Shown piece by piece: positions 1,044-45,106 of a stretch of DNA of 45,106 bases. Both the position numbers and the translations under genes were made by a program. The stretch lies in NCBI GenBank assembly GCA_020430505.1, contig JAGQJT010000006.1, positions 1-45,106 of the forward strand, written 5' to 3'. The first letter of the stretch is position 1; each line of letters opens with the position of its first letter. The notes under the pieces are model-generated. The model was not told the origin of the DNA. It saw nothing but the letters and a program-made list of their open reading frames with translations, and searched no databases. Source of the DNA: Nanobdellota archaeon (lineage in GTDB: Archaea; Nanobdellota; Nanobdellia; Pacearchaeales; GW2011-AR1).

Positions 1044-1119
1044 TAAGAGTAAAGAAAAACCCTATTTATATTAATTTTGTAAAAGAAAGAGATGTAATCA
1101 CTTTATAAGTACTACAATA

Positions 1120-1134: not shown

Positions 1135-1154
1135 TAAAGCAAAGATAAAGAAAT

Positions 1155-2467: not shown

Positions 2468-2517
2468 ACCAAAAAATCAGCAACAAACTTTTTAAACATT
2501 TTTTACTAAAAACTAAA

Positions 2518-3012: not shown

Positions 3013-3054
3013 AGTTTTCTAAAAAAGTTATTAATTTAATAGTAATAACAAATA

Positions 3055-3069
3055 GAAAGGTTTAAATAG
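3055..3069 (+). promoter_or_regulatory. BRE/TATA-like promoter motif GAAAGGTTTAAATAG
   Basis: Lies 21-35 nt upstream of the ATG at 3090, spacing typical of leaderless archaeal transcripts. Confidence 0.45.
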
Positions 3070-3089
3070 TCTTATTATTTTCAAATTAC

Positions 3090-3692: not shown

Positions 3693-3834
3693 ATTTTTAT
3701 TTATTTTTTATTACACCAATTTCGGCAAAGCCGACTATCTATTTTATCTTTGATAAAACCACGTACTCTTATTTTTAATCCTCAGTAATTTCGTTTAATT
3801 TCGTATTATGCAATTTTCAAATTCAAAGAAATGA

Positions 3835-5031: not shown

Positions 5032-5041
5032 AAAAACAAAT

Positions 5042-6535: not shown

Positions 6536-6560
6536 AAGAAAATATAGTTTATAAGAATTA

Positions 6561-12872: not shown

Positions 12873-12918
12873 TAGGTAATTTAGGAAAAAAGGGTTTATA
12901 AAAATTATTGTGGACAGA

Positions 12919-13503: not shown

Positions 13504-13508
13504 AAGAG

Positions 13509-14108: not shown

Positions 14109-14109
14109 T

Positions 14110-14760
14110 TTATGGTGTTAAGGTCCCACAATTAAGGGTGGTTTGTACTCCTTTAAAATAAATTGAATTGTTATAATCTCCACTAGCCTGAGCTGCAGGA
14201 ATATCTAACCAAAATCGATACCAGTTTACAGAACCTGCTGCAATATTCTCTCCAGATTTTGCATAACTAGTTGTTAAAGAAACTTGACTTCCAGAACTAG
14301 GATTATTTAGATCTGTAGAGGTGGAATTATAATAAGTTTCGTTATCTAAACCAATTGTGTCTAAAGCAGCATTTGTTAAATCATCATTAGCTCCAATACA
14401 AAAATCAACAGGAGTATTGCTATCTGTAGAGACATTCACACAATAAGTGGAAGCACTAGCAGCACCGTCGTAATTATGAGTACCATTTTGATCCGTAACT
14501 GGAAGAGTTGTTACATTCCCAAAATAGATTCCTTCAGAAAGATTATCGCAAAGAGCAACAGATAGATATTTTTGAATTGTCACATTTGAAACAGTTGAGC
14601 TTTCTGTAGCATGACCAGTAAATGATAGAATAGATTTTCCCGTTTTTGCGTCAGTATTCTGAATTACAAGCAATATCAAGCATGCTACTATGACTATTAT
14701 AAGAACAATATTGAACCAACTCACCCTTTTCGTTTTCATTTTGGATAGCAAAAAAAACAT
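14110..14760 (-). CDS. small secreted sequon-rich beta-sandwich-like protein (paralogue family A, copy 2)
   Basis: Signal/TM (FNIVLIIVIVACLILLVI). Carries the same conserved blocks as 12919..13503 (GIYFGNVTTLP, NVSTDSNTPVDFCIGAN, WYRFWLDIPAAQASGDYNNSIYFKG). An alternative start is the ATG at 14739 (MKTKR). Confidence 0.7.
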   Translation of the reverse strand: MFFLLSKMKTKRVSWFNIVLIIVIVACLILLVIQNTDAKTGKSILSFTGHATESSTVSNVTIQKYLSVALCDNLSEGIYFGNVTTLPVTDQNGTHNYDGAASASTYCVNVSTDSNTPVDFCIGANDDLTNAALDTIGLDNETYYNSTSTDLNNPSSGSQVSLTTSYAKSGENIAAGSVNWYRFWLDIPAAQASGDYNNSIYFKGVQTTLNCGTLTP

Positions 14761-14814
14761 TCTTTTGTTTATAAATATTTCTTTATTCTAGTGTATGAAA
14801 CTAATTTCAAAAAA

Positions 14815-20825: not shown

Positions 20826-20847
20826 TCTCTATTTTTTCTTTAACCAT

Positions 20848-23800: not shown

Positions 23801-26529
23801 TCATCACCATTAAAGGTATAGGTAACTGCACTTAAACTTGGAGCTTGACTATGATAAATCTTCGCAGCGTTAGAAACACTTCCCCTAAAATTAGATGAAA
23901 ATAAAACTAAATTTCCAATTTGAGAACTTGTCCCACTTGCTTTTATATCCCCTACAACTTCCAACACTTCCGAAGGACTCGTCGTCCCAATACCAACATA
24001 ACCATTTTCATTATCAACAAATAAATCAGTTCCCCCAACACTAAAATTATTGTCTCCCAAAACAACATTCTGGTTTGCTCCAGTGTAAGGAACATAAGAA
24101 TCATTTATTGTTGAATTGACCTCTCCCCAAGAATTTATACAATCTCCATCAATACAAAAACTTCCATTGATATTTGAATTTCCAGAAAGATACAAATCTT
24201 TCCATCTTAAGCTTGAAGAACCTAAATCAAAGGTGGCATCAAAACCTTCTTGAGGAAATAAAGATCCATTTATGTTTAAATTTGAAACTTGCAAAGAACT
24301 AATGTTGTAAACATAAACTGATTGAGCATACAAATCTCCTCCATTTATTGTAACACCTCCTTCACTCCAAGAGCCTCCAAAATTGTAAGTTCCAGTTCCA
24401 TTATCTCCATCATTTCTCAAAAAAGTTGCATCTGCGTAAGCAATAGCTGGAGTTGTTTGGTTATAAGCCCAAGTATCATAAGTTGAATTATATGTTGAAG
24501 ACCAAGAAGAATTATACAAACTAAAATTAGCAGTCCACAAAGGATCGGTTTCAGAACCACTAACAACATTACTCAAACAATTTCCTCCTTCAATACAAAA
24601 ATCAACTTGAGAACTAACATTCCCAAAAAAAGAATAATTATTCACTCCACTAAATGTTGCAGTATCAACGGCATATTTTCCAACTCCAATCTTCAAAGTT
24701 TCTTTTCCAGAAGCAGAAGCATTATACCCACTTATTAATAATTCTTTAGTTACTCCAGAAAAAGGTTCATAATAAAATTCAAATTCTTCAGAAGTTGCAT
24801 TTCCCAAAATCAAGTTAGAACCATTAACTCTCCAGATAAAATCATAACCTGAAGGGGTGGTTCCAAATTCCAATGCTTTTATATCAGTATCCAAATTAAT
24901 TTCTGCAACATTTCCATCTTGAGCATTATTCCAATTAAGAATCATCTCATGAGCCCCAGTATTTTTAAATAAAAGGGTCCCATCATCATCTCCAAAATCA
25001 AGAGTTAAAAGCTGGTCTGGATTCAAAGTTCCAATTCCAACATTTCCATTCATGAAAGAAATGTTTTCCGTATTGACATCAAAATAAGGATAACCATAAA
25101 CCTCCCCCCAATCACCAAATTGTAAAGCAAAATCATTTCCTGCCAAAGTTCCTGCTGCAGTAAATATATTCTCTCCGTCTGAATCTCTAAATGTTGCGAT
25201 ATTAGAACCTGCAACTCCTTCAACACTAAGAGCTCCAGCCTCACCATTTCCTCCAATAGATAACAAAGCAGCGGGAACTGTTGCCCCAATTCCAATATTT
25301 TCTCCACTTTGATAAATAACTGAATTATTCAAACTAGTTGTTCCGTTCCAAACCGGAATATAATTTGCAGTTCCTTCACCCGACAAAGTTCCAAGACCAT
25401 CGGTAACAGAGGATAAACAATTTCCTCCTTCAATACAAACATCAGCTGTTGCATTTACAAATCCACCAGAATAAATATTTCCAGTAAAATTTCCTGTTCC
25501 AAGAACGTTTAAAGTATTTTGAGGGGTTATGGTTCCAATCCCAACTCTACCTGTAGAAGGATCTATGATTAATATTTCATTTCCAGGAGTTTCTCCCCCA
25601 TATCTAAAAGTTCCGTCGCTGAATTTAACTGCAATAGATTCGTCATCCTCAGTAAGCAAACCCAATTCCCCCCCATAAGAATCATCACTTAAAATCAAAT
25701 AACCAACATTATCTTGACCGAATCTAACTTTATCAGAGAAGACATCAAATTCATATTGAGGGTTGTTAGTTCCAATACTTACATAACCAGTATTTGAATT
25801 CACAAAAAAAGTATCCGTATTTACAGTTAAATTTCCACCAACAACCAAATCATTACTTATATCAACATCAGTTACAAAAAGTTTAGAAATTCTATTTCCC
25901 AAACTTCCCAACCATCCAAAAAAACCTGTTCCAGTTGTGGTAATATTTTGAGAACCTAAATCAACATTTGAATCAGCTCCAGAATAAGGCACATAAGAAC
26001 CATTTGCAATACTAGCATTTATCCAGTTAAGATCATTACTAATTTGACTTCCGCTAATCCCAGTTAATTGAGAACCATCTCCAACAAAGTAAGAAGCAGT
26101 TACATTATAACTTCCAAAATCCAAATTAGAATCTACAATCAAACCTGAAGTAGTAGAATTTTTAGTTTGAAAAGAATAAGGACTTCTTGCAATTTTTGAG
26201 TTATTAATTAAAACGCCATCTCTGTAATAACATAAATAATATTGTTCATCAAAATCTAAGTTTACATTTTCCAAATAATAAGAGATAATTCCACGATTAT
26301 CTGTAGTTAAAGTGGTTGAATTAGAGTAAATAACTGGAGAACAATCTGATTCGTTTGAAATATTGAAAACAAAATCAAATGTTCCCGCAGTTATTTCTCC
26401 TGTTGAGGTATCTAAAGTTTGAATATTCAAATGCAACTCATCTAAGACAGTTGCAGAAGAAACAAAACTAAAGAAAAATATAATTGAAATTAAGTAAATT
26501 ACAAAATAAGTAGGAAATTTTTTCACCAT
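20848..26529 (-). CDS. giant secreted fibre-like protein with reiterated GNVGIGT..P...L.V.G and D.CIEGGNCLS modules
   Basis: 1893 aa with signal FVIYLISIIFFFSFVSSA. More than 10 copies of an (N/R)VGIGT(T/S).P motif, of the kind seen in tail-fibre-like proteins. Six copies of [DF]xC(I/T)(E/Y)GGNCLS plus a seventh degenerate one (FCIDGDCINS), four preceded by IYSGGFVNAT. Long internal nucleotide repeats. Confidence 0.85.
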   Translation of the reverse strand: MVKKFPTYFVIYLISIIFFFSFVSSATVLDELHLNIQTLDTSTGEITAGTFDFVFNISNESDCSPVIYSNSTTLTTDNRGIISYYLENVNLDFDEQYYLCYYRDGVLINNSKIARSPYSFQTKNSTTSGLIVDSNLDFGSYNVTASYFVGDGSQLTGISGSQISNDLNWINASIANGSYVPYSGADSNVDLGSQNITTTGTGFFGWLGSLGNRISKLFVTDVDISNDLVVGGNLTVNTDTFFVNSNTGYVSIGTNNPQYEFDVFSDKVRFGQDNVGYLILSDDSYGGELGLLTEDDESIAVKFSDGTFRYGGETPGNEILIIDPSTGRVGIGTITPQNTLNVLGTGNFTGNIYSGGFVNATADVCIEGGNCLSSVTDGLGTLSGEGTANYIPVWNGTTSLNNSVIYQSGENIGIGATVPAALLSIGGNGEAGALSVEGVAGSNIATFRDSDGENIFTAAGTLAGNDFALQFGDWGEVYGYPYFDVNTENISFMNGNVGIGTLNPDQLLTLDFGDDDGTLLFKNTGAHEMILNWNNAQDGNVAEINLDTDIKALEFGTTPSGYDFIWRVNGSNLILGNATSEEFEFYYEPFSGVTKELLISGYNASASGKETLKIGVGKYAVDTATFSGVNNYSFFGNVSSQVDFCIEGGNCLSNVVSGSETDPLWTANFSLYNSSWSSTYNSTYDTWAYNQTTPAIAYADATFLRNDGDNGTGTYNFGGSWSEGGVTINGGDLYAQSVYVYNISSLQVSNLNINGSLFPQEGFDATFDLGSSSLRWKDLYLSGNSNINGSFCIDGDCINSWGEVNSTINDSYVPYTGANQNVVLGDNNFSVGGTDLFVDNENGYVGIGTTSPSEVLEVVGDIKASGTSSQIGNLVLFSSNFRGSVSNAAKIYHSQAPSLSAVTYTFNGDENTGMYRMDSDKISLATGGSDRLVIDSSGNVGIGTSSPNYQFEVADNGDSLYFNSTSGIIGSTGRTDIKLYANDQNIFRGLDGWTGTWSDSVTTTYFQTGRSSGNTAFSASTGSLYNRLAFLVSDASESGILFTDSSGSNAVPNGYFEVRQNSGARTDFLIDYSGDVGIGTSSANQRLTVNGSTNISGDIYSGGFVNATTDVCIEGGNCLSDVVSGSETDPLWTANFSLYNSSWSSTYNASYVPYIGATSNLNLGSYAIYASNFKDNGDDVYVGTLSGNTDFANYVTGLGVNAANDNYGDFSTLIGYTAGYDNWGAYATAVGAASNYAAHGENVTSLGYFSGSLSSGNNTVAIGLSALQSNSGNDVVAIGYGAGIGNSASNKFIVQQSNVNATNLIYGDFATGQVNASDFCTYGGNCLSTVSAGSVGALTGEGTAGRIPLWNDTTSLNNSVIYQNSGNIGIGTANPNEELEVNGAVRSQQVLATGSGAHPSIANGYVELYVYNDGGTYTGRVLPYTGSSYIPLAIGDWNSGNPNIYLDTGGNVGIGKKPGTYKLDVGGNLKVVGSSNTTGDIYSGGFVNATTDICIEGGNCLSDAGTGNGNVSGGGIAGRLAYWTGSDILSSDLDLKWEESLERLGVRTSTPQNTLNVIGEGNFTGNFSVANNFFIDDSTGNVGIGEDYGKPGYALSILRDEPYIQLKKSGFSGGSSGIYFGDIFDDDVGRIIYNHTTDQIDFYTSAGLAFTSRYLSGKRYFGINVTSPSEALEVGGNINVTGDVCIEGGNCLSTVSASGLGAVTGAGTANYIPMWNGTTSLNNSNIYQLGTNIGIGTTTPQNTLNVIGNANISGGEIYLERNRAIQFPNSGGTMIDTFVVDTGGNSILSAVEDGGDIYIRSPSNVYGRFLNGGSVYLGGTSATSSPKFAILSGGNVGIGTTTPQNTLNVIGTGNFTGNVTTERIVFENSANNYIDDNSTCVKIHGATSILEIC

Positions 26530-27947: not shown

Positions 27948-28070
27948 TGAGCCTACTCGGATTTGAACCGAGGACCTCTGGCTTTCTTAGAGTAAATCTG
28001 TGAAAGTTGTAATTCTCATGAATCACATTCCTATAAGACCAGCGCTCTAACCAGGCTGAGCTATAGGCTC
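27948..28070 (-). tRNA. tRNA-Ile (anticodon UAU) with a 48-nt intron at canonical position 37/38
   Basis: Cloverleaf built by hand. Acceptor GAGCCUA/UAGGCUC (7/7 pairs). D stem GCUC/GAGC. Anticodon stem CUGGU/GCCAG (one G-U). T arm CUCGG-UUCAAAU-CCGAG. Discriminator A, no encoded CCA. Loop C-U-UAU-A then the intron GGAAUGUG...CUAAGAA then A38. CUUA (32-35) can pair with UAAG in the intron, leaving two 3-nt bulges at the splice sites (BHB-like). Confidence 0.8.
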
Positions 28071-35641: not shown

Positions 35642-37000
35642 TTAGTCTAATTTCTTAACAACATAAATCCTATCTTCATCCAATTCATAACCTAATTTCT
35701 TATAATACTCTCTAACACCAACTCCTGAAATAACTTTTAGAAATTTTATTCCTTCAGAAGAAACAATCTTTTCGGCTTCTTGCATAAGCCATTTTCCAAA
35801 ACCTCTATGCTGAGAAATTTCTCCTTTCTCACCAAGATTCAAATTCTGGCCATAAACATGCAACTCCCTTATAATCGCCTTGCCATCAAAAATCCTCAGT
35901 CTCAAAAGTCCAAATAAAACGTCTTTTTCGTTAACGACTTCCAAAAAATATTCCGTTCCATTAGAAGCTTTATATTTTGTGGTTTTCAACTTTAAATCTT
36001 CATTCAAACTATTTTCTTTGTTAAAACCAATTTCTCTTAATCTAATTTCTTTAATTTCAACGCCTTGTTTTTTTAGATTTTCTTCAATAATATTTCTTAA
36101 ATCCAATTTCATTGGCTCAGTAAGCATTTTTTCTTTGGGAATCTCCCTCATAATTCTCATAATTCTACAATAATTTGGAATGATTGGGAACATCTCTGAA
36201 AGAAGTTTTTTCATTTGTTCTGTAGAATAAGATTTGTAACCAATTTTTTCGTACATTTTAGCCAAAGGAGAATCTTCAACAATTTGACACGGATAAATCT
36301 TAAGTTGATCTGGTCTAAAATCTTCTTTATCAAAAAGCATTCTAAATAATTTCAAATCTTTTTCAGGATTACTATAAGGCAAACCAGGCATAAAGTGATA
36401 ACCAACTTTAAACCCCGCATTTTTCAATCTCTTTGTTGCATCAACAACATCCTGAACAGTATGACCTCTATTTATTTTTTTATAAATCTCATCATCTGGT
36501 AATTGAACACCAATTTCCACCCTTGTACATCCAAATTCCAACATTCTCTTAATTTCTTCATCAGAACAATTATCTGGCCTGTTTTCAATGCACAAAGCGA
36601 CACATCTATTTTCTGCAGTTTCATTTATCTTTTTTGCTTCTTCAAGATTATTCGATTTTTTTCCATTCAAAGAATCAAAACAAGATTTTATGAAATCATA
36701 TTGATAGTCTAGATCATACTGCAAAAAAGTTCCACCCAAAACAATTATTTCAATTTTATCTGTTGGATGTCCCATTTTTTTTAAAACTTTTAATCTGGCT
36801 TGAACTTGTTCATAGGGATCAAATTTCAAATCCAAAGCCCTCATAATCGCAGGACTCTTATCAGTATAACTTTGAGGAACAAAATCTCCTCCAGGACAAT
36901 AAATACAAGTTCCATGATTACATTTTCTCGGTTTTAGTACGACTGTCAAAGGTGTAACTCCAGACGCACTTCTTACAGGTTTTTTTGGTTTTTCCATCAA
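35642..37000 (-). CDS. elp3: Elp3-type radical SAM / GNAT acetyltransferase (tRNA U34 modification)
   Basis: Radical SAM cluster motif CNHGTCIYCPGG, a TIM-barrel-like middle region, and a C-terminal GNAT segment (RELHVYG...QHRGFGKWLMQEAE). At 452 aa it is on the short side for Elp3. Confidence 0.9.
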   Translation of the reverse strand: MMEKPKKPVRSASGVTPLTVVLKPRKCNHGTCIYCPGGDFVPQSYTDKSPAIMRALDLKFDPYEQVQARLKVLKKMGHPTDKIEIIVLGGTFLQYDLDYQYDFIKSCFDSLNGKKSNNLEEAKKINETAENRCVALCIENRPDNCSDEEIKRMLEFGCTRVEIGVQLPDDEIYKKINRGHTVQDVVDATKRLKNAGFKVGYHFMPGLPYSNPEKDLKLFRMLFDKEDFRPDQLKIYPCQIVEDSPLAKMYEKIGYKSYSTEQMKKLLSEMFPIIPNYCRIMRIMREIPKEKMLTEPMKLDLRNIIEENLKKQGVEIKEIRLREIGFNKENSLNEDLKLKTTKYKASNGTEYFLEVVNEKDVLFGLLRLRIFDGKAIIRELHVYGQNLNLGEKGEISQHRGFGKWLMQEAEKIVSSEGIKFLKVISGVGVREYYKKLGYELDEDRIYVVKKLD

Positions 37001-37047
37001 ACATTCAAAATAAAAACACTTTTAAACCATTCGAAATTAGACAAAAA

Positions 37048-37470
37048 ATGATTATGGGAAAAAAATTTAATACAAATGAGAAGACCGTAAGAGATATGCT
37101 AAAATTCGGAGAGTACCCTGTAAGAAAGATATATCTCACCAATGGCACAATTTTCAATAATGGATTAAAAGAAGCATTTAGAGAATTCCCCAAATATTGG
37201 ATAGAGCTTGGAAACGGAACTTTTGTTGAAAACAAACTATCTAAAGAATACCAAAACACAAGAAAGGGAAAATTATTCAAATATCTTTTATCTTTAAAAC
37301 CTGCAACTGAATTGAATATAAAACCAAAAGATTTTTACAATGCGGAAGATAGAAAAAATGGGTTTGAATTTGACATCCATAAAAAAGGACATCCAATTTT
37401 AGAAGAAAAAGTTCTAGAGATAGATTTAGAAAAAAAATCTTTAAGTGTTTCCAGGAAATTTAAAATTTAA
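37048..37470 (+). CDS. hypothetical protein
   Basis: The ORF is trimmed to the ATG at 37048 (MIMGKKF), because the tracked 36985 start overlaps the divergent elp3 start. Confidence 0.45.
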   Translation: MIMGKKFNTNEKTVRDMLKFGEYPVRKIYLTNGTIFNNGLKEAFREFPKYWIELGNGTFVENKLSKEYQNTRKGKLFKYLLSLKPATELNIKPKDFYNAEDRKNGFEFDIHKKGHPILEEKVLEIDLEKKSLSVSRKFKI

Positions 37471-38032
37471 TTCCCATTAAATGTATCAACATATAATATA
37501 ATAAGATTATTGCAACTAAAATAAATGCAATAACTATCCATCTGTATTTCCATTTATGTTTATGGAAATTTTTTCTGTCTTTGTGTTTGACCTTGTCAAT
37601 TAATTCGTCCCCAAAATAAACGGATAAAAAAGTTCCTGCTGCAGAAAGAAGTATTATCAAACCATAAGGAAAAGGATGGGTGAGAATATTATAAAATATT
37701 TGAAGTAAAAATGTACTTTGATAAACACCCTTAAAAGAAATTAATGCAATTAAATTCACTATTGCTGCAATTATCCAAACAAAAACCTCTGAATGTAACA
37801 TTCTTATTTTTATCAAAAGTCTAATTGGCAAATCTAAGAACATTCCTGCATCTGCAACAGGAGTGCAAAATACAAAAAAAGACCAAGTTAGGATTGTAAC
37901 AAGAAATCCATGCCCCGCACCAAACCTCAAAGAAGCATAAATAAAATAAGCGATAACCAATAAAAAAACTCCTAAAAATCTAAAAGTAATGTGCCTTTTT
38001 GTTTCGTGTTTAAAAAAATCAAATTTCATCAT
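37460..38032 (-). CDS. polytopic membrane protein (hypothetical)
   Basis: 190 aa with about 5 hydrophobic helices. Confidence 0.6.
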   Translation of the reverse strand: MMKFDFFKHETKRHITFRFLGVFLLVIAYFIYASLRFGAGHGFLVTILTWSFFVFCTPVADAGMFLDLPIRLLIKIRMLHSEVFVWIIAAIVNLIALISFKGVYQSTFLLQIFYNILTHPFPYGLIILLSAAGTFLSVYFGDELIDKVKHKDRKNFHKHKWKYRWIVIAFILVAIILLYYMLIHLMGIKF

Positions 38033-38094
38033 CTCTTACCAGATAAATAAAATAAAAAACAAATATAAGTCTTTTGATTATGAAAACGTTTATC

Positions 38095-38139
38095 AAATCT
38101 TCTTTTTTATATGATTAATGGAAAACCAAGAGAAGATTT
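38095..38139 (+). repeat. ORF-less hairpin at the left edge of the cassette array
   Basis: AAATCTTCT (38095-38103) pairs with AGAAGATTT (38131-38139) around a 27-nt loop. It ends 2 nt before the left border of core 1 (TTGCGTTTAAC, from 38142), roughly where gene-bracketing right arms sit in the other units. Confidence 0.6.
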
Positions 38140-38141
38140 AA

Positions 38142-38260
38142 TTGCGTTTAACATCGGAATTATCTGAAGTTTCACGAAGTGAAATTTGGGAATTTTCGGC
38201 AGGAAATTTCCTTTTATCCCTTGTTATGTGGGGAGACTGCAAGTCGACCTACCGAAGGGA
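38142..38260 (+). repeat. structured intergenic core 1 (attC-like)
   Basis: Left border TTGCGTTTAAC (GTTTAAC at 38146-38152). Hairpin AAGTTTCAC-GAA-GTGAAATTT (38167-38187), then GGG. Hairpin GGAAATTT-TCGGCAGG-AAATTTCC. GTTATGT (38223-38229). GAC-TGCAA-GTC (38235-38245). Right border CCGAAGGGA. Confidence 0.8.
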
Positions 38261-38265
38261 CAGTT

Positions 38266-38529
38266 TTATTTTCGTGAATCATATTTAAACTTAATAAAAA
38301 CTTGAATTCCAGAAATAATTGTTGCAAATCCATTTGTGATTATCAGAGGATAATTCTTAATTAAGATTCCATAAATAGTCCAAAGTAACATACTAGAAAA
38401 GAAAATCAGAAGCATAGAGGTAGAAATGCCTTTAACTGATTTTGTTTTTAGGGACATCTTAATTTGTGGAATCATTGTAATTGCAACAAGTATTCCAGCT
38501 AAATATCCAATTATTTCTACGATTATCAT
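38266..38529 (-). CDS. SemiSWEET / PQ-loop sugar transporter (cassette 1 cargo)
   Basis: 87 aa with three TM helices and the PQ motif ITMIPQIKMSLKTKSVKGIS. Confidence 0.8.
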   Translation of the reverse strand: MIIVEIIGYLAGILVAITMIPQIKMSLKTKSVKGISTSMLLIFFSSMLLWTIYGILIKNYPLIITNGFATIISGIQVFIKFKYDSRK

Positions 38530-38580
38530 AATAAATGAATTAAGTTTAAGTTATATAAAAAGTTTTGTAAGAAAATAAAA

Positions 38581-38754
38581 TTGCACATAACATAGGGATT
38601 AAGGAGAGTTAATTTTACAGAGCGGAACGACGAAGGAGTGACCTCGTAAAATTAATTTGGGAGAGGACTGCAAGTCCGAACTCTTTAACCGTTGTTAAGT
38701 CGTGTGAGCGTTAGCGAAAGTCTGCAAGACGGCACCGAAGCCGAAGGCGAAGGA
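38581..38754 (+). repeat. structured intergenic core 2 (attC-like, enlarged)
   Basis: TTGCACATAAC. A long arm ATAGGGATTAAGGAGAGTT pairs imperfectly with AACTCTTTAACCGTTGTTAAG. Inner stem AATTTTAC...GTAAAATT. ATTTGGG. GGAC-TGCAA-GTCC (38665-38677). GTTAAGT. GTC-TGCAA-GAC (38720-38730). Three consecutive C-GAA-G units (38735-38754). Confidence 0.75.
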
Positions 38755-38938
38755 ATTTTTTCTTCTACGTTAAGAAAATTTAAATCTCTATTTTTAGGGT
38801 GGAAAGTACGCGCTTTTTGCTTACTTTTTTCTAAAAAGTAAGTCGCCACGAAAGGCGAAAATTGGTGACCGAAGAATTTTTAAACTTTAGAAATTTGGTA
38901 ATATCAATAACTGTCCCGTATGGTTCGCCATATTGGGA

Positions 38939-39460
38939 CTACTTTTTATTTAATGCTTTTCTTAGATTTATTGAACCGTCGCAACAATTTCTTAATTGAT
39001 ATGATGAACTTTTTGGAAAGAAAGCATTGATTACTTTTTTGCCATTCTTTCTTGCTAGGTTTATCGCAGGAATAAAATCTGCATCTCCTGAAACGATTAT
39101 TGCAACATCGTATAAATTTTCATAAGAACCTCTAATTAAATCTGTTGCTAAATAAACATCGTCACCTTTTATTGCAAAATCCAAAGAACCGTCTGGCAAA
39201 ATAATTTTTCTTAAATTGCAAAGAACAATATTGAAATTTGGAATTTTCTTTATTTTGTCTAAGAATCTTTTATGTTCTTTGTACTTTGCTTCATCTATTG
39301 ATTTGTCTAGAAGAGCAGTATAATAAAAAATATCTACAATTTCTCTTTTTGTTTCTATTCTTTTTATTATGTCTTCAAATTTTGTTTTTATGTCGTATCT
39401 TTTTAGATTATGATAAAGATTACTTCCATCGATAAAAATAGCAACTCTTTGATTGTTCAT
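38939..39460 (-). CDS. NYN/LabA-like (DUF88) domain protein (cassette 2 cargo)
   Basis: RVAIFIDGSNLYHNL near the N-terminus and IIVSGDADFIPAI later in the sequence. Confidence 0.85.
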   Translation of the reverse strand: MNNQRVAIFIDGSNLYHNLKRYDIKTKFEDIIKRIETKREIVDIFYYTALLDKSIDEAKYKEHKRFLDKIKKIPNFNIVLCNLRKIILPDGSLDFAIKGDDVYLATDLIRGSYENLYDVAIIVSGDADFIPAINLARKNGKKVINAFFPKSSSYQLRNCCDGSINLRKALNKK

Positions 39461-39575
39461 AGAACTATAGAGAAAGAAGAGTTTTAAGTTTTATTGTTCT
39501 TAGAAATTTTCCAAAGCCCTTCAAAATAATTCTTCAAAATTTTAAATTTTGACTAACTTTTAGCTCGCCCGCTTA

Positions 39576-39697
39576 TTGAAACTAACATCGGGATTATCTG
39601 AAGTTTGACGAAGTCAAATTTGGGTGAGGACTGCAAGTCAGAACCAGATAATCGCTGTTATACGTTTTTTCTGCAAGAAAAAAAGCCGAAGGCTCAG
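39576..39697 (+). repeat. structured intergenic core 3 (attC-like)
   Basis: TTGAAACTAAC. Arm AACATCGGGATTATCTG (39584-39600) pairs with CAGATAATCGCTGTT (39645-39659), leaving a TC bulge. Hairpin AAGTTTGAC-GAA-GTCAAATTT (39601-39621). GGG. GAC-TGCAA-GTC (39629-39639). GTTATAC (39657-39663). TTTTTTC-TGCAA-GAAAAAA. GCC-GAA-GGC. Confidence 0.85.
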
Positions 39698-39821
39698 TTA
39701 AATTTTCACGTTAATAAATATCGACTGAAAGGAGTCTATATGTCCGAAGGACGAGGGGGAGTCCAGATTTTTTGTTTCTTTTTTTTAAAAAAATAAAATA
39801 GAGGGGCTTCTATGTTAAAGT

Positions 39822-41072
39822 TTAATCAAAATTTCTTATTAACTTAAATAAATTCCAAAAAGGGTGTGAGAAAAATCTTTTGTAATACTTACTTAACATC
39901 TTAGAATTTTCATGTACCTCTTTTTCAGCAATAATTAATGAATATTTTTTGTTAATATTCGCCCATGCTTCTGTCATTTCAGTTTTATTTTTTGGTCCAG
40001 GAATTTCAATTTTATCGTATTTTCTGAAAATTGCAAAGTTTATTGCTAACCAAAGAGAAATAAATCTGACTCCTAAAAAATTTTCACTTTTTGCATCAAT
40101 TAGTGAGGGGATAAATAGTTTTGGCATGATGAGTTCTAAATCGTTTAGATTACCTAAAACAAATGCCATATTCCATGAAGTATATAAGCTAGCCCATTCT
40201 TGACTTGTTTCTATCGTAGGAAAAAGATTTTTTTTATAATATGATTTGTAAAATGGATTAACATTGTCTGGAACAACAGTCTTTTTTTTGAATATTGTTT
40301 TTGGGCGATTTATCTTTAGATATTCACACAAAGTGTGTGCACATAAGGCATTTGCTCTAAATCCATTATTGTATTCTGTAATTCCTGCTTCATATATGTT
40401 AATTCTTACTAGCTCATTAATGTGTTGATTGTGGTTTTGCCTAATTGGTGATAGAAGCCTATAGTCAATATAGTTTATTTGTTCATCTCTATACAGCTTT
40501 TTTAATTCCTCTTTTTGTAGTTGGGTTTTTGACAATCCTCTTTGAAGTTTAAAATATACTAAAAAAGGATCAAGTGAGAATGGTTTTGCTATATCAAAAA
40601 AATGAGGCGAAATTTTTAATGCGTTTAAAAAAGTTCTAAAAGGGTGTTGAGTATTCAATCCTAATTCTTGTTCTTTTTTCTTATAGTGATTTTGAACTTC
40701 AATAAAAAAATCATGGTCGTTGCACATTGTTGCTGTAAAAGATTCAAGGATATATGCAATGTGTACTGCTTTAATCATATTTTTTGATGGTTTAAACCAA
40801 CTGTTCTCGTTTCCTAACGCTAAGAATTCAACTATTGCAGGATGTTTTTTTAAGATAGCTTTTTTGATAATCTTAAACATTGAATCTAATTTCTTGGATT
40901 TAGTTTTACTTTCTTGTAGAAATTTACTTATGATTTTATTCTTAGTTTTGAAGTCATGCAATCTGATTTCTTTTAGAACTTCTCTTATTGTTTTAGGATT
41001 AGTTGTTAAATCATTTGATAAACCAAACAATAAAAATGATTTTTCAACAACCTCTTTTTTACTTTTTTCCAT
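39822..41072 (-). CDS. hypothetical protein (cassette 3 cargo)
   Basis: 416-aa ORF with no recognisable catalytic motif; no tyrosine-recombinase R..HxxR..Y pattern was seen. Confidence 0.65.
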   Translation of the reverse strand: MEKSKKEVVEKSFLLFGLSNDLTTNPKTIREVLKEIRLHDFKTKNKIISKFLQESKTKSKKLDSMFKIIKKAILKKHPAIVEFLALGNENSWFKPSKNMIKAVHIAYILESFTATMCNDHDFFIEVQNHYKKKEQELGLNTQHPFRTFLNALKISPHFFDIAKPFSLDPFLVYFKLQRGLSKTQLQKEELKKLYRDEQINYIDYRLLSPIRQNHNQHINELVRINIYEAGITEYNNGFRANALCAHTLCEYLKINRPKTIFKKKTVVPDNVNPFYKSYYKKNLFPTIETSQEWASLYTSWNMAFVLGNLNDLELIMPKLFIPSLIDAKSENFLGVRFISLWLAINFAIFRKYDKIEIPGPKNKTEMTEAWANINKKYSLIIAEKEVHENSKMLSKYYKRFFSHPFWNLFKLIRNFD

Positions 41073-41253
41073 TATATTATGTTAATAATTTGAAGAATTT
41101 ATAACTTTTGCTTTTTTAAAAGAAAATGATGAAAGCCCCTCTTAATAAATTTCTTTTACGAAGTAAAAGTCAATATGTGCGTAGCACCTGGACTCCCCCT
41201 CTTTTGCTTCTTTTTCTAAAAGAAGAATGAGATTTAGATTAGTGAAAATTTAA

Positions 41254-41396
41254 TTGCGTATAACATCGGAATTTAACGAAGTCGCCAAAGGCGATTTGGG
41301 AGAATGAGGAGTGAGCTTGGCGAACGACGAATGAACCGTTAAATTCCTGTTAAACTCTTTTTGCATACGAAGTATGTAAAAACTTCGTCCGAAGAG
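41254..41396 (+). repeat. structured intergenic core 4 (attC-like)
   Basis: TTGCGTATAAC (GTATAAC at 41258-41264). Arm AACATCGGAATTTAACG (41262-41278) pairs perfectly with CGTTAAATTCCTGTT (41337-41351) except for a TC bulge (41266-41267). Hairpin TCGCC-AAA-GGCGA. ATTTGGG. GTTAAAC (41349-41355). CATAC-GAA-GTATG. Right border TCCGAAGAG. Confidence 0.85.
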
Positions 41397-41472
41397 TTTT
41401 TGAATTGCTAACAATTATTTTTGTAAGATTACACTTATACTATAAGGCTACAGAAAATAGTTACTAGAAGTT

Positions 41473-41488
41473 GGAAAGTTTTAAATAT
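41473..41488 (+). promoter_or_regulatory. BRE/TATA-like promoter motif GGAAAGTTTTAAATAT
   Basis: Lies 22-37 nt upstream of the ATG at 41510, inside the cassette-specific inverted repeats. Confidence 0.45.
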
Positions 41489-41509
41489 GTATTTAAATAA
41501 GAGTTAAAC

Positions 41510-42682
41510 ATGGACTTAATAATCATCCTAATTGCAATATCTTTCTTAGTTATCATATTTGCAAAACCATTTTTTAACAAACTAAATATTCCTCTGAGTT
41601 TTAGTGCTATGTTTATTGGCATGGTCTTAGGGACTTTGCCATTATTTCAAGAGACTGCTAATACAGATACTTTCTCTTGGTTTGCAAATCTGGGTATGCT
41701 TTTTATGATCTTTTCGATAATCTTTCAGATGAAAGGGTCAAAACATAAACAGGATAAAGCACTTGGAAAATATTTGATAAAAGCAGGCATAAAAGTTATT
41801 ACATTGGAACTATTAATAATATTTCCATTAGTATACTTCTTTTTAGAAAAAAATATTCTTAGTGCATTGTTAATCAGTTTAATATTTACAACTGTTGCTG
41901 AAGTAATGGTAATACCTTTTCTAAAAAAATTCAAGATAATAAATACAAAACTGGGAAAATCAATTGTAGGGATAGGTATCTTAGACAATGCTTTTGAATA
42001 TATAGTCATCCTGATTGCCAGTTTCTCAAGTGTTGGTGGAGATGCAAATATTAAGACATTAACAATCGCGGCAGTTGCTACAATAACTGCATTTATTTTG
42101 GTAAGATCTTTCTCTAAAACAAAATATCTTGAACATATTGTAAAAAATTTAGATTCAAATGGTTTATTTTTATTATCTATTGGAGCATTATTTTTATTTA
42201 GTGGTATCTTGTCATTAATTGGACTAGAATTTTTGGGAGCAGTTATTGCTGCGATTCTTATAAAAAACATTGTTAAAGAGTTACCTAAAAATCATAATGA
42301 TGAGTTAAATAAGATAATTAATGCAAGTTCAGAAGGATTATTCGGACCAATATTTTTCTTGTGGGTAGGGGTCACAACAAACTTGATGTACATTGTTCAA
42401 AAACCAGGTCTAGCAATAATATTTGTGCTAGTAGGTTTATTCGCAAAAATAATCCCAACAGTTATTGCAACAGCAAAAGATATGAATATTCACTCGTCAA
42501 TTATATTAGGTATAGCATTAAAATTCGGTTCAGGAATAATTTTTATCAAATTACTCTTTGAAAAAGGTATGATTACAGAATTAACATATACACTAACAGT
42601 TGCTGCAATACTATTATATAGAATACTTATTCCACTTTTACTAGGACATTTTATTACCAAATGGAAGAAAGACTTAGTTTAG
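41510..42682 (+). CDS. cation:proton antiporter (CPA/Kef-type Na+/H+ exchanger family) (cassette 4 cargo)
   Basis: 390 aa with about 11-12 TM helices. The N-terminal layout (IILIAISFLVIIFAKPFFNKLNIPLSFSAMFIGMVLG) is typical of Na_H_exchanger family proteins. Confidence 0.75.
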   Translation: MDLIIILIAISFLVIIFAKPFFNKLNIPLSFSAMFIGMVLGTLPLFQETANTDTFSWFANLGMLFMIFSIIFQMKGSKHKQDKALGKYLIKAGIKVITLELLIIFPLVYFFLEKNILSALLISLIFTTVAEVMVIPFLKKFKIINTKLGKSIVGIGILDNAFEYIVILIASFSSVGGDANIKTLTIAAVATITAFILVRSFSKTKYLEHIVKNLDSNGLFLLSIGALFLFSGILSLIGLEFLGAVIAAILIKNIVKELPKNHNDELNKIINASSEGLFGPIFFLWVGVTTNLMYIVQKPGLAIIFVLVGLFAKIIPTVIATAKDMNIHSSIILGIALKFGSGIIFIKLLFEKGMITELTYTLTVAAILLYRILIPLLLGHFITKWKKDLV

Positions 42683-42722
42683 AATACTTATTTTCTGTAG
42701 CCGTTTGTTAGCAATTCAAAAA

Positions 42723-42807
42723 TTGAGTTTAACCCTTGTTATACGCCCCGACGACTGAAAGGAGGAGAGCGCAGCGTGGTCGAGCGGAGTGAAACGGAGC
42801 GAAGAAG
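42723..42807 (+). repeat. structured intergenic core 5 (minimal variant)
   Basis: In TTGAGTTTAAC-CCTT-GTTATAC the two boxes (42727-42733 and 42738-42744) are only 4 nt apart and the inner hairpins are absent. This is followed by a GC-rich module containing GAGAGCGCAGCGTGGTCGAG (42765-42784) and the right border GCGAAGAAG. Confidence 0.8.
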
Positions 42808-42824
42808 TTGATTTAGAGGCACGA

Positions 42825-43148
42825 TTACTTGCCATATTTATCAATAAGAAAACCCAACGCTGAACCAAGAATTAAAGTCATTATGGTTATCGGTATTAGT
42901 GAAAATGGTTCTTGCCAACCAATAATTATTGCAGAAGGTAATAACACAAGAAATGGAATAATTATGCCCTTGGCTACGCCTTTTATTTTTAGATCACTTG
43001 TTGCGATTAGAAAGCCAGAGATTATCCAAAGGGAAAAAGCTGACAGATTTGCATCCCATGTCAATTTTTGAAGAACCATTGGGATAACATCAATTACTCC
43101 AGCTATGATTCCAAGTAAAATACCAAGTTGGGTTTTCTTCATGCTCAT
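42825..43148 (-). CDS. small 3-4 TM membrane protein (cassette 5 cargo)
   Basis: 107-aa hydrophobic ORF. Confidence 0.6.
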   Translation of the reverse strand: MSMKKTQLGILLGIIAGVIDVIPMVLQKLTWDANLSAFSLWIISGFLIATSDLKIKGVAKGIIIPFLVLLPSAIIIGWQEPFSLIPITIMTLILGSALGFLIDKYGK

Positions 43149-43206
43149 AATTATAACCTTAATTTATTAGAATTTAAATAACTTTCTCTAAGTGCCTCTA
43201 AATCAA

Positions 43207-43280
43207 TTGCGTATAATTCCTGTTAATTGTCCCGAGCCGATAGGCGAGAGCGCAGCGTGGTCGAGGCGAAGCCGAAGAAG
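43207..43280 (+). repeat. structured intergenic core 6 (minimal variant)
   Basis: TTGCGTATAA-TTCCT-GTTAATT looks like core 4 with its interior deleted. Then GCC-GATA-GGC, the same 20-nt block GAGAGCGCAGCGTGGTCGAG (43246-43265), and GCGAAGCCGAAGAAG. Confidence 0.8.
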
Positions 43281-43328
43281 TTTGAGATTTGGGCGTAATC
43301 AGTATAAACTCTAGAGTGGTAATTGAGC

Positions 43329-43342
43329 GAAAGATTTAAAAA
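43329..43342 (+). promoter_or_regulatory. BRE/TATA-like promoter motif GAAAGATTTAAAAA
   Basis: Lies 25-38 nt upstream of the ATG at 43367, inside the cassette-specific inverted repeats. Confidence 0.4.
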
Positions 43343-43366
43343 GTTCTTATCAATTCTTATATTAAT

Positions 43367-43741
43367 ATGACAGATTCAAATGCACTTTTGGTAAAACCAA
43401 AGATAAGTAAATGGGGAGAAATCAGAGCATACTTAGCTCACGATTTTGATGCTCTTGATTTAGACCATCAAATTTATGTTCCTGAAAGATTTGTTTTAGG
43501 ACACTTTAGGGAGAGGAAAGATGGTTTCAAATTAAGTCAAGGCGGAATTTTTTATAGAGATTCTTCGGAAGCATTAACACAATATCAAAAACATCTTGAC
43601 GATGGAAAAATGGAAGTTGTGCAAGAATTATTGTTACCTGAATCTGTTTTAGAGACAATTGCACAACAGGGTAAAGTGTATATTGATGCAAGAAAACAAA
43701 TCTCTGAATCTGTCCAATCAGTTGATCAATATTTAGTTTAA
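43367..43741 (+). CDS. hypothetical protein (cassette 6 cargo)
   Basis: 124-aa soluble ORF with no motif recognised. Confidence 0.55.
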   Translation: MTDSNALLVKPKISKWGEIRAYLAHDFDALDLDHQIYVPERFVLGHFRERKDGFKLSQGGIFYRDSSEALTQYQKHLDDGKMEVVQELLLPESVLETIAQQGKVYIDARKQISESVQSVDQYLV

Positions 43742-43777
43742 ATCTTTCGCTTTCTATCTTTTAGCCCAAATCTCAAA

Positions 43778-43935
43778 TTGAGTTTAACATCGCGATTAAG
43801 AGAAGTTTGGCGTAGCCAAATTTGGGGAAATTTTCTGCAAGAAAATTTACCTCTTAATCGCTGTTATATTCTTCCGATAGGAACGAGGGATAGTCTGCAA
43901 GACGGTTTTTTGCGAAGCAAAAAAATCCCGAAGAG
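43778..43935 (+). repeat. structured intergenic core 7 (attC-like)
   Basis: TTGAGTTTAAC (GTTTAAC at 43782-43788). Arm AACATCGCGATTAAGAG (43786-43802) pairs perfectly with CTCTTAATCGCTGTT (43851-43865) except for a TC bulge (43790-43791). Hairpin AAGTTTGGC-GTA-GCCAAATTT (43803-43823). GGGG. ATTTTC-TGCAA-GAAAAT. GTTATAT (43863-43869). TTCC-GATA-GGAA. GTC-TGCAA-GAC. TTTTTTGC-GAA-GCAAAAAA. CCGAAGAG. Confidence 0.85.
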
Positions 43936-44101
43936 TTGTGTTTAAGTTCCAATAAATACTGCGTAGCAGACTATATGTCCAAAGGACTGGGGAGAGTTCC
44001 GTTCTTTCAAAAAAGCGTAGCGTTACATATAGAACAAGTATTAAGGGGCACACTCAGATTTAGCAAATATTAATAAATGAATAGTCATATTTAATTTATA
44101 A

Positions 44102-45106
44102 ATGGAAGCTAATAATAATTCAGATAGATTTGAATTAATCTACTCATTTTTTATGTTGATATTTGGATTTGGAATTATTGCTTGCTTTCTGGTTGCGATT
44201 GGTTTCATCATTTACATATACAATTTTATGTTTCTCATTTATTGTTGGCCTATCTTGGTTGGCATCTGGTTAGGAATTTTTAGGAAATCAGATAAAGGAT
44301 ATGAAATGGAGTTAAAACAAGAAGATGCCAAAAAATTAAATGGAATTATAGAAAAAATCATCAAAAAAACTGGACAAAAAAAGCCCTATAAAATAATTCT
44401 TTCAGAAGGTAGTGGAATTGCCGTAAGTGGATTGTTCAGGAAAAAACTAATCATTGGATTGGCTACACTTCAATTGTTAAACGAAAAAGATTTACTTGCA
44501 ATCATCGCACATGAATACGGACATTTTGCTAAGAAAGATACTATTTTAGGATATTTCACATATAGAATACAGAATTTTATTGAATTGCAAAAGGAAATAA
44601 ACAAGCAAAATATAGGAGTTAGTTTTACAATTGTGATTTATTTACCAACCTGGCTTTTTTTCTATTTACTTTCAAAATATTATACTCTTATTAGTTTGTG
44701 GTATAGCAGAAGAGTTGAATATAGAGCAGATAGATTCGCCGCAGATTTAGTCGGAGAAAAAGAGTTTGCTGATGCTCTTGTTAAATATTGTGTAATAAGT
44801 GAGATTTTTGAAAATGTGATTCCCCAACATATTATTCATTTTCTCCAACAAGATAAGCAGTTAGTCAAAATGAATAAAATGTGATTCCCCAACATATTAT
44901 TCATTTTCTCCAACAAGATAAGCAGTTAGTCAATATTTACGATTATATGAATCCAATATATACAGAAGACAATATCAAAAAGTCTTTCAAAGGAGTTTTA
45001 TCCGATAAAAGCAGTTGGTGGTCAACGCATCCAAGCATAAGTGAAAGACTGGAAGCACTAAATACTAAATCTGTTGAGGTAAATATCAATACCAATCTAA
45101 AGGATT
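44102..45106 (+). pseudogene. M48-family (HtpX/Ste24-like) zinc metallopeptidase interrupted by a 65-bp duplication (cassette 7 cargo; 3' end outside the window)
   Basis: N-terminal TM helices and HEYGH (IAHEYGHFAKKD). The frame ends at 44884 (..LVKMNKM*). From 44881 a second frame repeats VIPQHIIHFLQQDKQLV and continues open to the window end, including WWSTHPSISERL, the conserved C-terminal M48 motif. Confidence 0.65.
44811..44933 (+). repeat. tandem duplication: two perfect 58-bp copies with a 7-bp spacer (period 65)
   Basis: 44811-44868 equals 44876-44933 (AAAATGTGATTCCCCAACATATTATTCATTTTCTCCAACAAGATAAGCAGTTAGTCAA). The spacer is AATGAAT. Confidence 0.95.

Follow-up and report, generated by a model that had tools for sequence, protein, structure and literature searches.

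Why should single, unrelated genes at the end of an archaeal contig be separated by structured sequences that all lie in the same orientation? The question is raised by positions 38095 to 45106 of contig JAGQJT010000006.1 (assembly GCA_020430505.1) from a Nanobdellota archaeon of the Pacearchaeales; the whole stretch analyzed, the first 45,106 nt of this contig, is referred to below as the window. An earlier note, made from the letters of the window, had described seven intergenic "cores" in this region and likened them to the attC sites of integrons, the textbook example of gene capture one cassette at a time. Our comparison with related loci points to an integron-type gene-capture platform as the probable explanation, driven by a XerA-like tyrosine recombinase that acts on large sites folded from the + strand. 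The region would then be the distal part of a chromosomal array of this type.

Organization of the array and its relatives

The seven co-oriented cores, placed by the earlier note between 38142 and 43935, were all recovered there, each on the + strand, and they are indeed richer in GC than their surroundings (0.39-0.55, compared with about 0.30 for the window). The pattern of their left border, the left box (TTGNNNNTAACATNG), occurs five times in the window where 0.08 occurrences are expected, in the array only and on the + strand only. The genes between the cores lie, in array order, on the strands -,-,-,+,-,+,+, and Pfam analysis of the window's open reading frames (ORFs) returned SemiSWEET/PQ-loop, NYN, Na/H exchanger and M48 peptidase families, so that the gene calls and strands proposed previously hold. 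Perfect inverted repeats, called arms here, bracket five of the genes exactly where they had been noted, with lengths of 10, 12, 18, 15 and 14 nt. In a 7x7 control matrix that set the 40 nt following core i against the 40 nt preceding core j, adjacent core pairs scored 10, 12, 18, 15 and 14 and non-adjacent pairs at most 8, in support of the adjacency of the paired arms.

The cores belong to a family that extends to other genomes. A motif derived from them, TAACATCG..TT....RAAGT(8-38)ATTTGGG, was scanned across species-representative genomes and matched, at the least and among the matches listed, more than 120 contigs. Nearly all of these belong to metagenome-assembled genomes (MAGs) of DPANN archaea (Diapherotrites, Parvarchaeota, Aenigmarchaeota, Nanoarchaeota and Nanohaloarchaeota), namely Woese-, Pace-, Nano- and Aenigmatarchaeota, while a few are labeled as bacteria of the candidate phyla radiation (CPR). 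A profile of module A, the left half of the cores, detected 217 copies in 124 loci, the loci being 8-20 kb stretches of MAG contigs; this model is blind to other core subfamilies, such as cores with TAAC-GTWWG. Every multi-core locus listed is co-oriented internally, with up to eight cores in 8 kb. A viral element was also considered and rejected, as only one match was found among 2.9 million viral contigs.

Boundaries of the cassettes and mobility

A locus from another sample, L001, matches the window at 99% identity. The match begins at the end of the cassette encoding a 107-aa protein, takes in the cassette encoding a 124-aa protein and lasts until ..TTGAGTTTAACATCG, beyond which L001 carries a different core and different genes. 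This breakpoint led to a rule that ties neighboring cores together. After the inner GTTA box of core N stand five nt whose reverse complement recurs as the five variable nt in the left box (TTG-NNNN-TAAC) of core N+1. The match is perfect in 37 of 59 neighbor pairs and reaches 4/5 in nine more, compared with 7/142 for the two boxes of the same core and 3.2% for random pairs. Within the window, the GTTATACG(C) of cores 3 and 5 finds its complement, GCGTATAA(C), ahead of cores 4 and 6; likewise, GTTAAACTC of core 4 is matched by GAGTTTAAC ahead of core 5, and GTTATGTG of core 1 by CACATAAC ahead of core 2. Integrons classically carry this signature: a cassette begins with bases complementary to its own inverse core site. 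It follows that the exchange falls between the variable bases and the core body and that each gene belongs with the core to its left. As the exchange falls in the left box, what is called the top strand in canonical attC sites corresponds to the minus strand of the window. A variant core in locus L128 (5390-5490) carries the left-box sequence reversed at its left end (..TTTCGATGTTAAATG..), while its inner box still fits the next left box, which suggests the existence of rearranged or inverted sites.

The 107-aa cassette provides a second view of the boundary. Its exact protein product is recorded in 60 blocks of the collection searched, and the right end of the cassette, ..GTGCCTCTAAATCAA-TTGCGTATAA, is identical in 11 contigs, the window and ten others. 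Immediately after TAA(C), six different sequences follow: T-TCCTG in the window, C-GCGCG in L206, C-TCCTT in L207, C-GTATG in L209, L210 and L212, C-GTTTG in L211, and C-TCGTT, leading into a recombinase gene, in L208, L213, L214 and L215. Two of the latter loci, L208 and L215, from two samples, differ by exactly one cassette of 556 bp encoding a 111-aa EamA-like protein, with identical flanks of 1249 nt up to TAA and 1758 nt on the other side; the only ambiguity lies in ATAA|CGTTAGG. In addition, L042 and L122, which belong to different species, share a cassette of 734 bp at 93% identity. Homology between them stops at the left box, and the cassette lies beside the recombinase and its attI-like site (see below) in one locus and in mid-array in the other. 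The gain, loss and shuffling of cassettes, which the earlier note had set as a test, are thus visible in L001, in the contexts of the 107-aa cassette and in these two pairs of loci.

Both the six contexts of the 107-aa cassette and the 556-bp difference confine the breakpoint to T-A-A-C. As judged from these alignments, strand exchange appears to take place in the left box, at or beside TAA|C, while the exact phosphodiester bond would be assigned by analogy with integrons. Both the breakpoints and the rule on neighboring boxes place it at the left of the core and not at its right border. Neither CCGAAG..GTT, on the right, nor the inner GTTA was retained as the crossover, because the same cassette precedes different cores and identity ends in the left box.

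A site predicted to fold from one strand

Module A was reconstituted for 30 cassettes from many species by joining the left-box half of each to its own core body. Compensatory changes were found in 19 of the 30 predicted pairs, and TAAC/GTTA is invariant. The predicted structure consists of a 9-bp R stem, a 2-nt bulge (TC) on the side of the cleaved box, a perfect L stem of 10-11 bp and two hairpins, the first closed by AAGT/ATTT and the second following the conserved ATTTGGG. A G·T pair is present in the AAGT/ATTT-closed hairpin in 29/30 sequences. Overall, the pairs of the + strand include 56 G·T but only 5 A·C, and with DNA parameters the + strand is more stable than the minus strand in all 18 complete sites. 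Many of the loops are GNA triloops closed by C-G or T-A, which are very stable in DNA.

Circularization would add further to this structure. Reconstituted circular junctions have a mean computed energy of -45.2 kcal/mol, compared with -31.2 kcal/mol for the same span in its array context, and the junctions of the window fold as predicted, with z-scores of -4.5 to -9.5. The computed folds thus agree with the earlier proposal that the arms of a circularized cassette clamp a complete core, and the conserved ..TAAC/GTTA.. boxes, the bulge and the folded single strand, seen through covariation and the complementarity of boxes, agree with its attC-type logic. Covariation and the G·T bias indicate that the strand predicted to fold is the + strand, i.e., the one reading 5'-..TAA|C. 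The substrate of the reaction would be folded single-stranded DNA.

The recombinase and its upstream site

When all ORFs of the loci were clustered, a tyrosine recombinase of 262-282 aa, present in 15 loci, proved to recur near the cores more often than any other protein. It lies downstream of the cores and on the same strand in 15/15 loci that have one, which bears out the association with a recombinase in related genomes that had been named as a test. In the minus-strand reading, the gene lies upstream of the array and diverges from it, the arrangement known from ordinary integrons. With respect to the gene, 47 of 65 single-gene cassettes point away from the recombinase and have their site on the 3' side of the cargo gene; the other 28% are reversed. 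In four samples the recombinase adjoins the 107-aa cassette again.

In 13 of the 15 loci the left-box motif recurs 60-170 bp before the start codon of the recombinase, and the same holds for L208, L213, L214 and L215. In eleven of the 13, the motif reads T-T-(G/T/A)-NNNN-TAAC and continues with A, after which comes a species-specific hairpin or inverted repeat. Two types can be distinguished. In the first (L005, L012, L035, L036, L042, L053, L075, L081, L093), TAAC-A precedes a perfect species-specific hairpin, mostly with a stem of 10-13 bp and a loop of 2-8 nt. In the second (L072, L128, L208), TAAC-TCGTTT.. is followed by repeated TATACGAA and GTATAAT motifs. The upstream motif is an attI-like site.

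The best-matching family of the recombinase is the archaeal XerA equivalog NF040815, with 199-250 bits against a cut-off of 220; five of the seven enzymes first scanned, as well as the L208 enzyme, score above this cut-off. The integron-integrase model TIGR02249 aligns in two separate stretches only (about profile positions 1-181 or 237-315) and below its cut-off of 265 bits. Among solved structures, the best relative is XerA of P. abyssi (4A8E), with which the alignment is colinear. Residues 180-244 (65 aa) of VchIntIA (2A3V) face only 21 aa in the recombinase, and therefore the IntI-specific insertion is absent. Judging from these alignments, the enzyme is XerA-type and not IntI-like, the kind of tyrosine recombinase that the earlier note had named among those to search for. 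Among the metagenomic homologues (80 loci), those with at least 43% identity mostly have a left box upstream, several together with matching cassettes, whereas none of those below 42% has one; the array-linked enzymes thus form a clade. We infer that the array-linked recombinase catalyzes the cassette reaction. For the window, its gene is predicted beyond 45.1 kb on the + strand.

Arms and accessory modules

Arms are general in the family: an exact inverted repeat of 10 nt or more brackets the gene in 42 of 58 cassettes, and in 35 of these it ends exactly at TTG (control, 16/396). The left arm begins with T directly after ..(R)AG in 34 of 35 cassettes across loci. The right border described by the earlier note therefore stands in part: CCGAAG is common but not universal, and the constant element is (R)AG followed by an arm that starts with T. 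Between module A and the left arm lies module B, 41-82 nt of mini-hairpins.

The arms had been thought strictly specific to each cassette, and this did not survive comparison. Both flanks of the cassette encoding a 416-aa protein, including arms, hairpins and the X boxes described below, are 87-98% identical in six other MAGs, the interiors of which have no similarity to the 416-aa gene. From these alignments, arms are specific to a subfamily and not to a cassette, and what is conserved is a recombination module, a few hundred nt long, that is combined with various genes. The repeats of Vibrio integrons are likewise conserved units joined to different genes. As to their role, the arms may stabilize the site of the excised cassette or bring neighboring cores together across the gene.

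A further element, module C, has the motif ..ACTATATGTCC-GNA-GGAC (..ACTATATGT[CG]C-GNA-G[GC]AC) followed by a G/C-rich box X. In 754 kb, 80 copies lie on the strand of the cores and six on the other. Usually a cassette contains two direct copies with complementary X boxes.

Proposed mechanism

The above observations can be combined into a model. On the + strand, the mobile cassette would run from C through the core body, the hairpins of module B, ..AG, the left arm, the cargo and the right arm to TTG-NNNN-TAA. The core body would comprise the L stem, the two variable hairpins around the conserved ATTTGGG and the inner box GTTA-NNNN-C. Exchange at or next to TAA|C would be the equivalent, in the minus-strand reading, of G|TT in the R' box of attC, and the + strand would be the analogue of the attC bottom strand. 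In the circular cassette, the junction would consist of the right arm, TTGNNNNTAA|C and the cassette's own core. The split left box would thereby meet its own inner box as the 9-bp R stem, the arms (10-18 bp), often together with the pair of X boxes, would extend the R helix, and module B would form a side branch. Most probably, the reaction is carried out by the XerA-type tyrosine recombinase, about 270 aa long, which relatives encode at the proximal end of the array and which is transcribed away from it. Its attI-like site (TTG-NNNN-TAAC plus a species-specific hairpin or repeats) lies 60-170 bp upstream of the recombinase start in most such loci.

The cassettes of the window

Core 1 (38142-38263, + strand) has its left box, TTGCGTTTAA|C, at 38142-38152, followed by module A with the inner right box GTTATGTGG at 38223-38231 and by module B with GNA-loop mini-hairpins at 38232-38263, and it ends with ..CAG. 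It would form the body of cassette A (38152-38590), which carries the SemiSWEET gene on the minus strand (38266-38529) between arms at 38264-38273 and 38571-38580 and ends with the left-box half TTGCACATAA (38581-38590), the partner of GTTATGTG of core 1.

Core 2 (38581-38754, + strand) has a long variable hairpin and the inner right box GTTAAGTCG at 38694-38702. Its cassette B (38591-39585), with a minus-strand NYN gene (38939-39460), is degenerate. The interval between cores 2 and 3 has no arms, contains a core remnant at about 38800-38876 and breaks the rule on neighboring boxes, with a complementarity of 1/5.

Core 3 (39576-39697, + strand) comprises a left box at 39576-39586, the inner right box GTTATACGT at 39657-39665 and module B at 39666-39697. 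Cassette C (39586-41263) has arms at 39698-39709 and 41242-41253, the gene for the 416-aa protein on the minus strand (39822-41072) and the end TTGCGTATAA (41254-41263), which pairs with GTTATACG. It also carries two copies of module C on the + strand. The left copy (39738-39766) reads ATATGTCC-GAA-GGAC, then box X GAGGGGGAGTCCAG at 39753-39766. The right copy (41173-41224) reads ATATGTGC-GTA-GCAC, then box X' CTGGACTCCCCCTC at 41188-41201, which is the reverse complement of X and is followed by TTTTG and the hairpin CTTCTTTTT-CTA-AAAGAAG. A further copy of the module is found in L001 (3523-3552).

Core 4 (41254-41396, + strand) has its left box at 41254-41264, the inner right box GTTAAACTC at 41349-41357 and module B at 41358-41396. 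In cassette D (41264-42732) the Na/H exchanger gene lies on the + strand (41510-42682) between arms at 41397-41414 and 42705-42722. The cassette's end, TTGAGTTTAA (42723-42732), together with the C at 41264 gives GAGTTTAAC, which pairs perfectly with GTTAAACTC over 9 bp.

Internal deletions have removed the L stem and the hairpins from cores 5 and 6; this is concluded because the 107-aa cassette has a full-length core in ten other contigs (L206-L215). Cassettes E and F are therefore probably unable now to fold their own sites here. Core 5 (42733-42807, + strand) keeps the inner right box GTTATACGC (42738-42746) and module B. Cassette E (42733-43216) consists of this core body, arms at 42808-42822 and 43192-43206, the minus-strand gene of the 107-aa membrane protein (42825-43148) and TTGCGTATAA at 43207-43216. 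The cassette recurs in identical form in at least six other contexts, one of them right beside the recombinase. In core 6 (43217-43280, + strand), T replaces C after TAA and the inner box is GTTAATTGT (43222-43230); this inner box and module B are related to the core that follows its cassette in L001. Cassette F (43217-43787) has arms at 43281-43294 and 43764-43777, the gene for the 124-aa protein on the + strand (43367-43741), and TTGAGTTTAA at 43778-43787; in L001, different cassettes come after it.

Core 7 (43778-43935, + strand) has its left box at 43778-43788, the inner right box GTTATATTC at 43863-43871 and module B at 43872-43935. Cassette G starts at 43788 and runs past the edge of the window at 45106, with the M48 peptidase gene on the + strand from 44102. 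Its predicted left arm, TTGTGTTTAAGTTC (43936-43949), is identical to an arm that is paired in L016; a copy of module C lies at 43973-44001, and the right end is predicted to be ..TTGAATATAA. The M48 peptidase gene contains a direct duplication of 65 bp (44811-44936; 61 nt aligned, 98% identical) that shifts the frame, so that the ORF stops at 44884, while the original frame resumes and continues to the end of the window. The duplication is either a true disruption or an assembly artefact close to the end of the contig.

Relation to Xer/dif elements

Since the enzyme resembles XerA, the array could be a product of ordinary Xer recombination. In that case the recombinase would be the housekeeping XerA, the site upstream of its gene the chromosomal dif, and the cassettes would resemble integrative mobile elements exploiting Xer (IMEX), piling up by double-stranded recombination, with hairpins and arms as accessory or incidental features. 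The best match to the XerA equivalog, the colinearity with 4A8E and the absence of the IntI insertion fit such an origin, as does the position of the recombinase beside core chromosomal genes, e.g., archaeal topA, in four loci. Successive integrations at dif are also known to yield tandem arrays in bacteria (CTX/TLC/GGI elements). The exchange site itself, however, is without the 11-6-11 dyad symmetry of dif. The four bases beside TAA vary by cassette and covary with a box about 90 nt away, not with the neighboring arm, and the strand-asymmetric G·T pairing and the energy difference favor a folded single strand. The left border was likewise rejected as a dif half-site: compared with the 28-bp dif, it has four variable positions, no dyad symmetry and no inverted partner at 6 bp. 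Moreover, dif is not adjacent to xerA in Thermococcales (PMC2958812). On balance, we regard such an origin as unlikely.

Certain likenesses to Xer-dependent elements are nevertheless real. With IMEX such as the CTX phage, which integrates as a folded single strand, the system shares a recombinase of the Xer family, a possible substrate in the form of a folded single-stranded hairpin with an imperfect central region, and tandem build-up at one chromosomal site. IMEX differ in their dyad-symmetric dif target and in being phages or islands, whereas the cassettes here are single-gene units with a conserved site each. To our knowledge, no platform for reshuffling at the level of cassettes exists for IMEX. 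The pdif modules of Acinetobacter are also small gene modules bounded by Xer-type sites in varied contexts, but their sites are 28-bp XerC/D duplexes, inverted on either side and located on plasmids, while those of the present system are long, folded direct repeats in chromosomal arrays beside a recombinase gene. A Xer-related "Cand" subgroup of tyrosine recombinases, with no function assigned, has been reported from candidate phyla (Smyshlyaev et al., 2021).

Relation to integrons

The topology is that of integrons, above all of sedentary chromosomal ones whose attC repeats are conserved, such as the Vibrio cholerae repeats (VCR). In both, a tyrosine recombinase at one end is transcribed away from a co-oriented array, and the attI or attI-like site lies just upstream of its gene. 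The cassettes, here about 0.3-3 kb (a few up to 6 kb), mostly contain one gene, which points away from the recombinase and is followed by the site on the 3' side. Imperfect palindromes with invariant ..AAC/GTT.. make up the sites, and exchange here is consistent with AA|C (= G|TT); one strand folds better, and the sites are conserved across unrelated, accessory cargo. One cassette of 6 kb lies in L207 (about 600-6575) and is bounded by a matching pair of boxes. It encodes an N6/N4 DNA methyltransferase, a ResIII helicase and an AAA_15 ATPase, a restriction- or defence-like cargo that resembles that of bacterial chromosomal integrons.

The differences concern the enzyme, the site and the hosts. 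IntI has its specific domain near patch III, an insertion that the recombinase here lacks. An attC site has an unpaired spacer and extrahelical bases, while here the R stem abuts the L stem via a 2-nt bulge; attC sites measure 55-141 nt, while here module B, arms and X boxes add up to a few hundred nt in the circular form. Furthermore, 28% of the genes are reversed, some with apparent TATA-like promoters of their own, and the hosts are DPANN archaea and apparently CPR bacteria. The system thus works like an integron and has its topology, but it departs from integrons in the IntI domain and in the fine architecture and size of attC. Arrays of attC sites in archaeal MAGs, including Nanoarchaeota and Aenigmatarchaeota, were previously detected with IntegronFinder, mostly without an integrase; six IntIs with the IntI-specific domain were found and the attC sites were canonical (Ghaly et al., 2022; PMC9668308). 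These are attC-type arrays as well, whereas the present system has another site architecture and a Xer-type recombinase.

We also asked whether the cores could be ordinary attC sites, with a true IntI elsewhere and the nearby Xer-like gene a coincidence. R boxes with AAC/GTT, imperfect palindromes and a module A of 90-150 nt, near the size range of attC, are in line with this, and Ghaly et al. (2022; PMC9668308) reported clusters of attC without IntI from a small number of Woese- and Pacearchaeales MAGs. Nevertheless, no IntI-type protein was found among the recurrent proteins of the 124 loci, whereas the Xer-like gene has a fixed position and strand and a left-box site upstream. The cores lack an unpaired central spacer and single extrahelical bases. 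Ghaly et al. tested an attC from Nanoarchaeota that is canonical, 60 nt long and unrelated to the cores, and none of 12 checked accession prefixes of core loci appears in the lists of that study. A canonical integron is therefore a very improbable explanation. No description of such a system, as an integron of DPANN, of CPR or of Xer type, was found in the open-access literature.

Structured RNAs and other repeats

Two explanations do without recombination between cores. The cores might be structured noncoding RNAs acting as regulators, insulators or terminators, with the long-range repeats working at the RNA level, e.g., in the pairing of mRNA ends. GC-rich islands in an AT-rich genome, covariation on one strand with G·U-type pairs and the T-rich runs after several modules are all features one would expect of such RNAs. 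The R stem and the arms, however, form only across the cassette or after circularization, homology between genomes breaks exactly at TAA|C, and the folding strand is antisense to 72% of the cassette genes. With Rfam 15, no match to the array was obtained in the window at the gathering score, nor any at E<=1 in 38000-45106, and the link to the recombinase is fixed. We find this reading highly unlikely. Miniature inverted-repeat transposable elements inserting independently between genes, a reading suggested by short, structured, non-coding sequences that are widespread in related genomes, are scarcely credible and already contradicted, since multi-core loci are all co-oriented with neighbors tied by box complementarity, the moving units are whole gene-plus-site cassettes, and the cores are flanked by neither terminal inverted repeats nor target-site duplications and are not repeated in the rest of the 45-kb window.

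Several points weigh against an integron-type platform driven by the XerA-like enzyme, and they concern both the general case and this particular array. Its support comes from sequence comparison and computed folding, and covariation alone is compatible with either single-stranded DNA or RNA. The recombinase could be a housekeeping dimer resolvase, as it scores as a XerA equivalog. The view from its side is incomplete, as left boxes occur only among homologues with at least 43% identity and cassettes are detectable in some of these. No tyrosine recombinase gene is present in the window according to tblastn and Pfam searches (20 ORFs), as the earlier note had also observed for integrases. Attempts to extend the contig past 45.1 kb by means of the 124-, 390- and 416-aa cassette proteins returned short fragments of the same context, except for L001, and no record was found when the 190-aa and M48 products were looked up. 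Part of this array may be inert, given the degenerate cassette B and the truncated cores 5 and 6. Finally, the assembly of sample ERZ27309112 breaks at cores, with one contig ending at about 39730, the next covering 39550-43154 and another starting at about 43242; only some 180 nt of repeated sequence thus link cassettes B and C of the window, and their join could be chimeric.

Hosts and genomic context

The European Nucleotide Archive samples ERZ27309112 and ERZ28655193 contain the cassettes of the window, and an independent assembly joins its backbone to cassettes A and B. This backbone looks archaeal. A 123-nt tRNA recognized by Rfam at 27948-28070 (minus strand), which ARAGORN misses in default mode, implies a long intron and supports an archaeal host, and the backbone also encodes Elp3 and a YchF-related GTPase, which we take to be of the archaeal type. 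In other loci, archaeal topA lies directly behind the recombinase gene (L005; related proteins are found in three further loci) and RadA is about 700 bp from a core (L050). The archaeal context is thus solid for several loci.

Bacterial-type neighbors occur as well. The identical 107-aa cassette is found next to MurE and FemX (L208, L213-L215) and to Ddl (L206), and in L207 on a contig with bacterial-type SecDF and guanylate kinase. The bacterial-type contigs also carry the same recombinase family and the attI-like site. L018, L049, L071, L072 and L078 are further loci noted with a CPR-labeled or bacterial-type context. This distribution suggests that the system and individual cassettes cross the boundary between CPR bacteria and DPANN archaea, although mis-binning or chimeric assembly may also explain the sharing.

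Two other features of the window were noted. Three consecutive giant ORFs of 2138, 1312 and 1893 aa occupy 6561-26529 on the minus strand; giant proteins are common in DPANN genomes. GC skew is negative across most of 4-37 kb and becomes positive at the start of the array (about 37000-38000). The cores and the + strand of the array are G-rich, and gene strand as well as these cores confound the skew, so that the change is either a replication feature or just the composition of the array.

Implications for ultra-small symbionts

It is possible, though we would stop a little short of calling it probable, that the arrays represent a distinct capture system of ultra-small symbionts, with a Xer-type enzyme without the IntI insertion and multi-stem sites of a few hundred nt folded from a single strand, common in DPANN archaea, also present in CPR bacteria and moving identical cassettes between the two domains. 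It would then have arisen as a separate invention of the integron principle, or else be related to the integrons' Xer-like ancestor. It bears on how the partnership of IntI and attC arose from Xer-like recombination and on how cassettes are made. A full integron architecture served by a recombinase without the domain thought essential for attC recognition is also a natural experiment on structure-specific recombination. The outer stems close only in the excised cassette, which suggests a built-in means of marking or stabilizing the free form. The sites are large, strongly covarying and conserved across many species, and the recombinase together with a site of about 150-200 nt is small enough for assays in vitro and in E. 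coli. Tools keyed to IntI would not call this recombinase an integron integrase. For the organisms themselves, the system appears to be one of the main routes by which accessory genes come and go in DPANN archaea, which have tiny genomes and in which gene exchange is poorly understood, and it may reach CPR bacteria of the same habitats, with identical cassettes in both.

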